29,843 bases of DNA, from IMG/VR virus record IMGVR_UViG_3300045988_044226. One strand, 5' to 3'. A program made the position numbers and the translations under genes. The number at the start of each line of letters is the position of its first letter. Positions within the stretch are counted from its first letter, which is position 1. Positions 14,290 through 15,084 of the stretch are shown here, piece after piece. The stretch is from a virus. A model generated the notes under the pieces. That model was given only the letters and a program-made list of their open reading frames with translations, was not told the DNA's origin and ran no database searches.

Positions 14290-15084
14290 CTAGAACAGAC
14301 CCCACTCGGCGAACTTCTCGAACCCGCCGAGGCCGGATATGTAGTCACGCGCGGCCTCAACGATTTCGTCGTACGGCACGCCGCCCACCTTCTCGTCTCC
14401 GATGTCGCACGAGAACTCGACCACCTCGCCCAGCTCCTGAGCCTTCAGGTGCGCGTACACGTTCACGGAAACGTCGGCCTTGCTCAGGTCTTTGCCGTGA
14501 AGGCCGCCGCCAGTCATGGCATCGCCCATGTCGCTGCCCAGCTTGCGGTTGGTTGCTCCGCAGTCAACGTCGCTGCCGCCAGTCCAGTACCCCATCGGGT
14601 TCACTACCTTCTCGCACCCGTCGGCCTCGATGTCGTCCTGCCAGTACTCCATGTTGCTCTGGCACACCACGAGGCGGTCGCCGTCGAGCACGTACTTGCC
14701 GTCCGCCTTGAACCTCTCGTGGTACTCACGCGCGATTGCCGACAGCTTTCGCTGCTCCTCGGTGACTGGGCAACCACGGAACACGCCGTTGTCGCCGCAT
14801 CGGAACCCCTCGCTCTGGTTCTCCGCAAGGTGCTCGTCCTGCTGGTACTCTCGATAGCGCACGGTGATTTCATCGTTCCCCGTGATTCGCCACACCGCGT
14901 TCCAAACGTCCCGCACGCTCAGCTTCGCCGATGTCTCCGCGATGATGTTGCACTCTCCGTGCCCAAGCAGAACCTCGACCGCGATTCGCGGGTTGTCCTG
15001 CTTCGCGTACGCCATGTCCACCAGAGCACCAGCGATTCTGTCGGCCACCTTGTCGGGATGGTCTGGGTTCACCTTCTCAATCAC
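14290..15084 (-). CDS. shortened MetK-like protein (S-adenosylmethionine synthetase homologue, 264 aa)
   Basis: The N-terminus EKVNPDHPDKVADRIAGALVD…RIAVEVL…GDNGVFRGCP matches the MetK N-domain (GHPDKIADQIS…, GAGDQGLMFGYA). The C-part VNPMGYWTGGSDVDCGATNRKL…GGGLHGKDLSKADVS matches the MetK motif INPTGRF..GGP.GDCGLTGRKI…GGGAFSGKDPSKVDRS. About 120 residues of the central domain and C-terminus are missing. Confidence 0.65.
   Translation of the reverse strand: MIEKVNPDHPDKVADRIAGALVDMAYAKQDNPRIAVEVLLGHGECNIIAETSAKLSVRDVWNAVWRITGNDEITVRYREYQQDEHLAENQSEGFRCGDNGVFRGCPVTEEQRKLSAIAREYHERFKADGKYVLDGDRLVVCQSNMEYWQDDIEADGCEKVVNPMGYWTGGSDVDCGATNRKLGSDMGDAMTGGGLHGKDLSKADVSVNVYAHLKAQELGEVVEFSCDIGDEKVGGVPYDEIVEAARDYISGLGGFEKFAEWGLF

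Follow-up and report, generated by a model that had tools for sequence, protein, structure and literature searches.

A shortened phage MetK homologue: probable SAM synthetase of a DNA-methylation module that one viral genome appears to have lost

Why would a phage carry a MetK that is well over a hundred residues shorter than the canonical enzyme, and what would such a protein do? The question is raised by the open reading frame (ORF) at 14290-15084 (minus strand; GTG start, TAG stop and 264 codons according to the ORF list) of IMG/VR virus record IMGVR_UViG_3300045988_044226, a stretch of 29,843 nucleotides that is referred to below as the window. The encoded protein of 264 amino acids, here called mini-MetK, had been described in an original prediction as a truncated synthetase of S-adenosylmethionine (SAM) that could either make SAM for phage methylation or poison the MetK of the host. 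Our analysis leads to the view that mini-MetK is probably a streamlined and catalytically competent SAM synthetase, which at the level of its family would supply phage DNA methylation and which in this phage has been orphaned by the loss of its partner genes.

The homology to MetK was recovered by independent means. The Pfam profile of the N-terminal domain (S-AdoMet_synt_N, PF00438) matched significantly (E 1.4e-9; 38.8 bits against a gathering score of 33.1), a phmmer search of the PDB sequences matched MetK over two stretches, residues 3-64 and ~150-217, with E-values as low as 2.5e-11, and the alignment by hhalign of a 46-sequence family profile with E. coli MetK had a probability of 96.6%. 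An AlphaFold2 model built on a 46-sequence family alignment reached a pLDDT of 87.7 and a pTM of 0.89, and the best 50 matches of this model in a Foldseek search of the PDB were all MetK or methionine adenosyltransferase (MAT; E 5e-15 to 2e-13; TMq, the TM-score relative to the query, 0.67-0.79), with alignments that covered ~350 columns of the ~380-residue MetK targets. With the canonical enzyme of E. coli (384 aa; PDB 7ll3 and 1xra) mini-MetK shares the fold of the whole chain (E ~5e-15, TMq ~0.73), and judged from the model the three-lobed architecture of MetK has been kept whole, at an identity to canonical bacterial MetK of 21-23%. The significant N-domain match and the MetK fold together bear out the identification as a shortened MetK homologue, and the three motifs on which it had been based, 'HPDKVADRIA' (aa 9-18), 'GDNGVFRGCP' (aa 97-106) and GGGLHGKDLSKADVS (aa 192-206), are all present in the 264-aa protein. 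No homology to the fold or family of the SAM lyases was found, as the Pfam, PHROG and PDB searches gave matches of the MetK type only. Within the viral structure models of BFVD, models resembling mini-MetK were absent (best E 0.015).

Which parts of the enzyme are gone? The missing part had been put at about 120 residues of the central and C-terminal domains. The size of that estimate holds, as 124 residues of E. coli MetK are unpaired in the multiple alignment, but the trims are scattered over ~22 short gaps, no domain is removed and the N region is affected as well, with 17 residues missing there, 52 of 132 from the central part and 55 from the C region. We considered and rejected the loss of an entire domain, since both the alignment gaps and the model show distributed trimming. 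More explicitly, the secondary structure of the AlphaFold2 model has a complete beta-alpha-beta-beta-alpha-beta unit in lobe 1, has lost the second outer helix and part of the hairpin in lobe 2, and lacks one strand and most of the C-terminal extension in lobe 3.

The residues that matter for catalysis were kept. Residue equivalences were taken from MAFFT and hhalign alignments, using the numbering of the mature E. coli protein, and the roles of the E. coli residues are presumed to be those known from the established enzymology and structures of that enzyme. The 'HPDK' motif (15049-15060, minus strand) contributes His9, Asp11 and Lys12, which align with His14, Asp16 and Lys17 of E. coli, residues that we take to be the catalytic acid and the ligands of Mg and triphosphate; it is kept in 46-47 of 52 diverse members, one from each of as many different 50%-identity clusters. 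The 'GDNG' motif (14785-14796, minus) corresponds to 'GAGDQG' of E. coli, its Asp98 being the equivalent of Asp118 (Asp in 50 of the 52). The segment 'DVDCGATNRK' (14542-14571, minus) holds Asp174, Arg180 and Lys181, equivalent to Asp238, Arg244 and Lys245, and is preceded by 'NPMGYW', in which Trp167 takes the place of the adenine-stacking Phe230. The glycine-rich triphosphate loop GGGLHGKDLSKAD (14473-14511, minus) provides Lys198, Asp199, Lys202 and Asp204, the equivalents of Lys265, Asp266, Lys269 and Asp271. Together with four further pairs (Glu37, Glu50, Gln82 and Asp185, matching Glu42, Glu55, Gln98 and Asp249) this makes 16 mapped residues (H9, D11, K12, E37, E50, Q82, D98, W167, D174, R180, K181, D185, K198, D199, K202 and D204), all of which are present, each conserved in 44-50 of the 52 representatives (85-96%) and invariant among 46 closer homologues. 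Mini-MetK thus has in common with the canonical enzyme the HPDK, GxGDxG-like and GGGxxxGKDxSKxD motifs as well as the catalytic, metal-binding and methionine-binding residues. As the conserved residues, whose E. coli counterparts contact ATP/triphosphate, Mg2+/K+ and methionine, are drawn from both faces of the dimer interface, the protein would be an enzyme that dimerises and catalyses.

What the synthesis of SAM would be good for is suggested by the company that the gene keeps in other phages. Four annotated phages of very different hosts or groups (Terrisporobacter, Gardnerella, Streptococcus and Oscillospiraceae phages) share the order HNH endonuclease, small terminase subunit (TerS), mini-MetK, a protein of ~420 aa that combines a ParB_N with an N6_N4 methylase domain, a few small genes and the large terminase subunit (TerL). 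To quantify the association, loci were divided into genome loci and a phage/viral-type set, the latter consisting of these 4 annotated phages, 80 IMG/VR contigs and one metagenome contig (L086). The ParB-methylase ORF begins 15-18 nt before the mini-MetK stop in 54 of the 85 phage/viral-type loci and in 43 of the 80 genome loci (97/165 in total), and such an overlapping start is the classic arrangement for what would be translational coupling. A homologue of a DNA methyltransferase, be it of the ParB-N6/N4, plain N6/N4, C5 or DAM-like type, was present in the flank of 77 of 84 phage/viral-type loci (L086 left aside) and 60 of 80 genome loci (137/164 in total). In the Javan prophages, whose short MetKs are 56-60% identical to mini-MetK over the full length, mini-MetK is followed by a ParB-adenine and a C5 methyltransferase. 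In Streptococcus phage Javan320 the same slot holds a canonical MetK of 345 aa (Javan320_0013; Pfam N domain 3e-28, M domain 1.8e-29, C domain 4.3e-60), with a ParB-methylase, a C5 methylase and TerS after it. Similarly, orf29 of Phi1207.3 is a SAM synthetase of 353 aa beside a ParB-methylase, for which the authors proposed a supply of methyl donor (PMC4260502). Both long forms match all three Pfam domains strongly and share no more than ~25-29% identity with the mini form, and both precede a ParB-N6/N4 methylase, a C5 methylase and terminase genes, and so have the same role in the module. That mini and canonical MetK replace each other in one and the same module is a good argument for their having the same function.

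These data also bear on the idea that the protein is a poison or decoy, which would co-assemble with or bind to the MetK of the host, lower the SAM level and thereby disarm SAM-dependent restriction or BREX in the manner of the SAM lyase of phage T3. The idea has its merits, as the active sites of MetK lie at subunit interfaces and the sheets that form the interface are kept in the mini-MetK model. Two accounts (PMC8406200; bioRxiv 10.1101/2023.02.27.530186) are reported to describe phage interference with MetK through the formation of heteropolymers, and PDB 8bb1 is among the fold matches of mini-MetK. A poison, however, has no need of the full set of catalytic residues, which is conserved under selection, and a drop in SAM would be self-defeating for a gene that is usually coupled in translation to a SAM-consuming DNA methyltransferase. 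Furthermore, canonical full-length MetKs fill the same position in related prophages, and the family is ~60% identical over phages of Streptococcus, Clostridia and Gardnerella, hosts whose MetKs differ. The T3 SAM lyase is likewise a phage protein that touches the SAM economy of the host and serves the evasion of restriction and BREX, and it is reported to contact and inhibit MetK. It has no homology to mini-MetK, which travels with methylases that consume SAM, and the predicted direction of action is the opposite one, synthesis against destruction. Considering the intact active site, the co-translated methyltransferase and the canonical MetK in the slot, we regard the poisoning of host MetK as highly improbable.

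The window itself departs from this family pattern. Mini-MetK has a credible GTG start (15084-15082), because a Shine-Dalgarno sequence, 'AGGAGA' (15091-15096, minus, as read from the window), lies 6 nt upstream, because the GTG overlaps by one shared G with the TAG stop of the preceding ORF of 78 aa (15084-15320; 'TAGTG'), and because the N-termini of the family, 'MIEKVNP' or 'MFEKVNP', agree with it. Immediately downstream is the dUTPase gene dut (13852-14280, minus; Pfam dUTPase 1.3e-32, PHROG 135), as the original prediction had it. Its ATG is found 9 nt past the mini-MetK stop and it has a ribosome-binding site of its own, 'GGGAGGA'; on the basis of this spacing and this site the two genes form one operon. 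The metK genes of Bacillota are typically under the control of a SAM riboswitch. An Rfam search found neither a SAM riboswitch nor any other Rfam element, and mini-MetK differs in this respect from canonical MetK, as it does in being phage-borne and 120-124 residues shorter. In the Javan prophages methyltransferases follow the short MetK, whereas in the window dut and a deletion scar follow and a methyltransferase does not.

The origin of the scar becomes clear from two relatives, L006, with a mini-MetK that is 90% identical to that of the window (87% nucleotide identity over 1.9 kb), and L007, where the identity is 72%. On the 3' side of mini-MetK, and in L006 also of dut, both carry genes for a DUF488 protein of 129 aa, a DAM-like/GNAT-like protein of 463-490 aa, a ParB_N-like protein of 303 aa, and TerS. 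The 463-490-aa protein (L006 7013-8485; L007 6439-7830 and neighbours) was recognised through Pfam as a fusion of 'Phage DNA Adenine Methylase-like domain 1' (7e-44) and 'Phage GNAT-like domain' (2.5e-31; PF22555+PF22559). The window has in this place a chimeric ORF (13020-13637, minus). Its residues 40-105 match the N-half of the DUF488 protein and its residues ~103-203, joined on in the same frame, the final 100 residues of the ParB-like protein, which make up the C-terminal third; the junction is near 13324. The near-identity with L006 ends sharply at this same position 13324, following an exact block of 63 nt, and ~2.26 kb of L007 is missing from the window in the DNA alignment. A deletion of ~2.3 kb, reconstructed here from the aligned sequences, thus appears to have taken out the DAM-like/GNAT-like gene and the N-domain of the ParB-like protein, leaving its scar 650 nt downstream of mini-MetK. 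The contig L086, with a MetK that is 86% identical, lacks dut, DUF488 and the DAM-like/GNAT gene. Given these losses and the deletion in the window, the region is indel-prone and the SAM-using partner has been lost in this phage. As an observation by the side, the GNAT-like domain of L006 and L007 recalls adenine-hypermodifying enzymes such as Mom; the paper on Mom has no direct link to it.

Is the remaining gene then a functionless remnant, drifting to loss after its partner was deleted? The nearby scar and the indel-prone nature of the region would fit such a fate. The ORF is intact, however, with its catalytic residues complete and its ribosome-binding site and operon coupling in place, and a cluster 95% identical to it comprises 539 member sequences. 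The ratio of nonsynonymous to synonymous substitution rates (dN/dS) of mini-MetK is 0.20 between the window and L086, two phages that both lack the partner, and 0.15 between the window and L006, which is similar to the values of 0.11-0.33 obtained for the core genes portal, TerS, ERF and the IstB-like gene. Mini-MetK is still under purifying selection without its partner, part of which constraint may predate the deletions, and we consider a decaying remnant very unlikely.

A number of observations weigh against the view of mini-MetK as a SAM synthetase for DNA methylation. The Pfam profile of the central domain (PF02772) had no match at E<=1, that of the C domain (PF02773) scored 14.2 bits against a cutoff of 25 (E 0.044; positions 2-52 of the 138 in the profile matched), and the NCBIfam equivalog TIGR01034 (metK) scored 47.9 bits against a cutoff of 309.4; by curated family thresholds mini-MetK is not a canonical MetK. 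The AlphaFold2 model is least confident around the triphosphate loop (pLDDT 60-77, residues ~161-200). The counterpart of the catalytic Lys165 is ambiguous, as MAFFT and hhalign both pair the invariant D128-G-K130 with the hairpin turn D174-G-K176 of E. coli. The element sits at the foot of the shortened hairpin, just past the long helix, which is the topological place of D163/K165, and on this topological argument only we infer that D128 and K130 are the equivalents of Asp163 and Lys165. Near the substrate site there are invariant changes that are specific to the family (S99 to D83, A116 to C96, G243 to N179 and S263 to H196, from E. coli to mini-MetK), which could change the specificity. The searchable literature yielded annotation-level mentions of phage MetKs and neither enzymology nor a structure for any of them. 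Finally, a methyltransferase was undetectable in any frame of the window, and likewise in L086, so that a role in methylation supply cannot apply directly in this phage. Of the earlier proposal that the protein makes SAM for phage methylation, the part that concerns the family is well in line with the residues, the coupled methylase and the canonical MetK in the slot, while the window, having no recognisable methyltransferase, does not conform to it.

The invariant residues around the pocket and the gating loop, i.e. D83 (beside Q82 in that loop), C96, N99, W167, N179 and H196, could be taken in two ways. They lie next to substrate-contacting positions, and an active enzyme of altered chemistry might make a SAM analogue, or accept a different nucleotide or amino acid, and in this way serve a DNA modification other than methylation. 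The partner in this lineage is an unusual one, a fusion of DAM-like and GNAT-like domains accompanied by DUF488 and ParB-like genes and by no plain methylase, and it could install a non-methyl modification of adenine. The contacts to methionine and adenine (E50, Q82, D98, D174 and an aromatic residue at 167), on the other hand, are all canonical, the common partner has an ordinary N6_N4 DNA methylase domain and canonical MetKs substitute in the same slot, which together make an altered chemistry quite unlikely. The same residues are the reason for considering a dedicated minimal MAT, insensitive to feedback, or a producer of a SAM-like cofactor that serves a partner DNA-modifying enzyme, the two possibly acting together during packaging. 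The orphan copy of the window would then point to a second, partner-independent function, which could for instance be the restoration of SAM against a SAM-depleting host or competitor. We rate this combined proposal as quite improbable too.

A further explanation is a role in the physiology of the host. According to this explanation, which covers lysogenic conversion and auxiliary metabolism, the extra SAM synthetase would mainly alter host traits such as aggregation, biofilm or quorum signalling, and the methylation of phage DNA would be secondary. The S. agalactiae prophage 12/111phiA has a Javan-like MetK with a truncation of 135 aa and an intact catalytic region, which was tied by deletion and plasmid complementation to flocculation/aggregation, chain length and glycocalyx (PMC8223999); it is likened here to mini-MetK through this published description and not by alignment. 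The genetics of this streptococcal prophage homologue show cellular effects upon expression, although the complementation was incomplete and secondary mutations had arisen (PMC8223999). SAM synthetase (K00789) is furthermore widespread as an auxiliary metabolic gene, with 58.9% of the Ca. Heliusvirales genomes carrying it (PMC11283538), and both the window and L086 keep mini-MetK in the absence of any methyltransferase. Against this, the gene usually lies in the TerS-TerL block and overlaps a DNA methylase, a position that speaks for expression in lytic growth and not for a moron locus. In the window the lysis genes run straight into the replication genes, and neither an integrase nor a repressor was seen among the scanned genes. 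As the principal explanation a role in host physiology seems unlikely to us, though it is compatible with a SAM synthetase for methylation and not exclusive of it.

The favoured explanation, a SAM synthetase for phage DNA methylation, can be phrased as a mechanism. A homodimer of mini-MetK would make SAM from ATP and methionine outside the feedback control of the host, and its expression from the phage operon would be free of SAM-riboswitch control. The supply of methyl donor secured in this way would allow the rapid methylation of replicated phage DNA before packaging, during lytic growth, and the methylated DNA would be protected against restriction. The demand for SAM would be very high if the partner methylases were of low specificity, like M.EcoGII, but this is a speculation that carries no weight in the argument. 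In the present phage the enzyme stands alone in an operon with dut, the partners (DUF488, the DAM-like/GNAT-like enzyme and the ParB-like protein) having been deleted. The orphan copy probably still raises SAM for host-encoded methylation or general metabolism, or else it may be no more than the intact survivor of the lost module.

The family to which mini-MetK belongs is very large and stable in length. The protein matches PHROG 1569 across residues 1-264 (2.4e-61), a group labelled 'unknown function'. A large protein search returned at least 8000 clusters at 90% identity, with lengths of 259-267 aa, and an exhaustive search with clustering at 50% identity gave 192 representatives under 1e-30. 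The members in GenBank phages, 56-65% identical and mostly labelled hypothetical, belong to Streptococcus Javan prophages, gut Oscillospiraceae/Acutalibacteraceae 'NatCom' phages (Ca. Heliusvirales), and Terrisporobacter and Gardnerella phages. Among species-representative genomes the family is widespread in gut Bacillota, and the few matches in other binned taxa may be binning noise. When 20 kb of the window were compared with the GenBank phages by megablast no match appeared, so that this phage has no close annotated relative. An exact-sequence look-up of its mini-MetK protein returned no record, and the available context of the 95%-identical P0001 stops short of the informative region. Four database representatives (P0122, P0149, P0195 and P0200) join pieces of mini-MetK to foreign sequence, namely a radical-SAM-like N-terminus with CxxxCxxC, a ParB-like N-terminus, or a Clp-protease/capsid fusion; their domain architecture is uninformative and they are probably chimeras of gene calling or assembly. 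A survey of ParB-CTPases mentions phage ParB-methylase fusions and does not mention MetK.

With respect to the wider surroundings of the gene, every recognisable gene of the window is on the minus strand. The order of transcription runs from tail genes, holin and endolysin to the ERF recombinase, SSB, RusA, gp157 and a DnaC/IstB-like protein, then over several small ORFs of no assigned function to mini-MetK and dut, and from there over two further ORFs to TerS, TerL and portal. Mini-MetK is therefore placed where the genes for replication and recombination meet those for packaging. The original prediction had spoken of the early region, which holds in part only, as the position is at the boundary with the packaging genes and an early timing is an assumption. 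The packaging module opens with TerS (12575-13048, minus; Pfam HTH_23 and Phage_term_sma, and synteny with L086 and L007). A promoter/terminator consensus scan of the coding strand gave no signal over background. The intergenic stretch at ~13540-13610 (minus), from an ORF of 80 aa to the chimeric ORF, is conserved and near-identical in L006. It contains the two arms CAAAAAGGCTGG ... CCAGCCTTTTTG of an inverted repeat and, after these, TGCTATAAT, which resembles an extended -10 box and was left unflagged by the consensus scan. The stretch may be a terminator/promoter boundary that precedes the packaging genes. PADLOC gave zero matches for the mini-MetK protein or its neighbours. A conserved ORF at 16841-17395 (minus; L007 654-1040) has a CxxC ... 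NQHH motif and an HNH-like look, without a match in Pfam, NCBIfam or PADLOC. At 21774-23817 (minus) an endolysin (GH25, CW_7 and LysM) is directly followed by the ERF recombinase and SSB. No integrase, repressor or other lysogeny gene was found among the window ORFs scanned (positions 1-8900 were outside the scan), and in this the window is unlike most relatives with a mini-MetK, which are prophages.

The gene for TerL is interrupted in the window (10364-12609, minus). The ORF at 11107-12609 covers TerL from residue 1 to ~402, with 91% identity to the 407-aa TerL of L086, which is uninterrupted. Past 'KENDHA' the ORF enters an intein N-terminal splicing block (CLVGSTMIETDGG...) and then reaches a stop. 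Next is a free-standing HNH_3 endonuclease ORF in a different frame (10473-11129), and in the third frame an intein C-block (...VYNLTVDETHNFAVNGGLVTHN) is joined to the final 23 residues of TerL (10435-10364). The arrangement has the look either of a split ('fractured') gene whose two intein halves are separated by a homing endonuclease or of a frameshifted intein.

Part of this picture was already known, as the truncated phage MetK and its link to phage methylases are found in the literature at the level of annotation. What is new here is the distributed trimming combined with a complete mapped set of catalytic residues, the quantified coupling to the ParB-methylase, the canonical MetK in the same slot, and the orphaning by a defined deletion. 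The distributed nature of the trims, the fact that the family is very common and annotated, and the loss of the partner genes were also absent from the original prediction. For the window the result is mostly a clarifying one, in that mini-MetK belongs to an abundant, annotated family and sits in a local context derived by deletion. The minimal enzyme is worth testing, though it will not surprise a specialist. If active, these proteins of ~260 aa would be markedly smaller than the MAT chains of 343-394 residues among the fold matches, and they could help to show on which parts of the fold catalysis and oligomerisation depend and would serve as compact tools for making SAM or its analogues. As to the biology of the family, gut and streptococcal phages that are very common pair a SAM synthetase with a ParB-methylase among their packaging genes, which suggests that the supply of methyl donor limits the self-protection of these phages against restriction.

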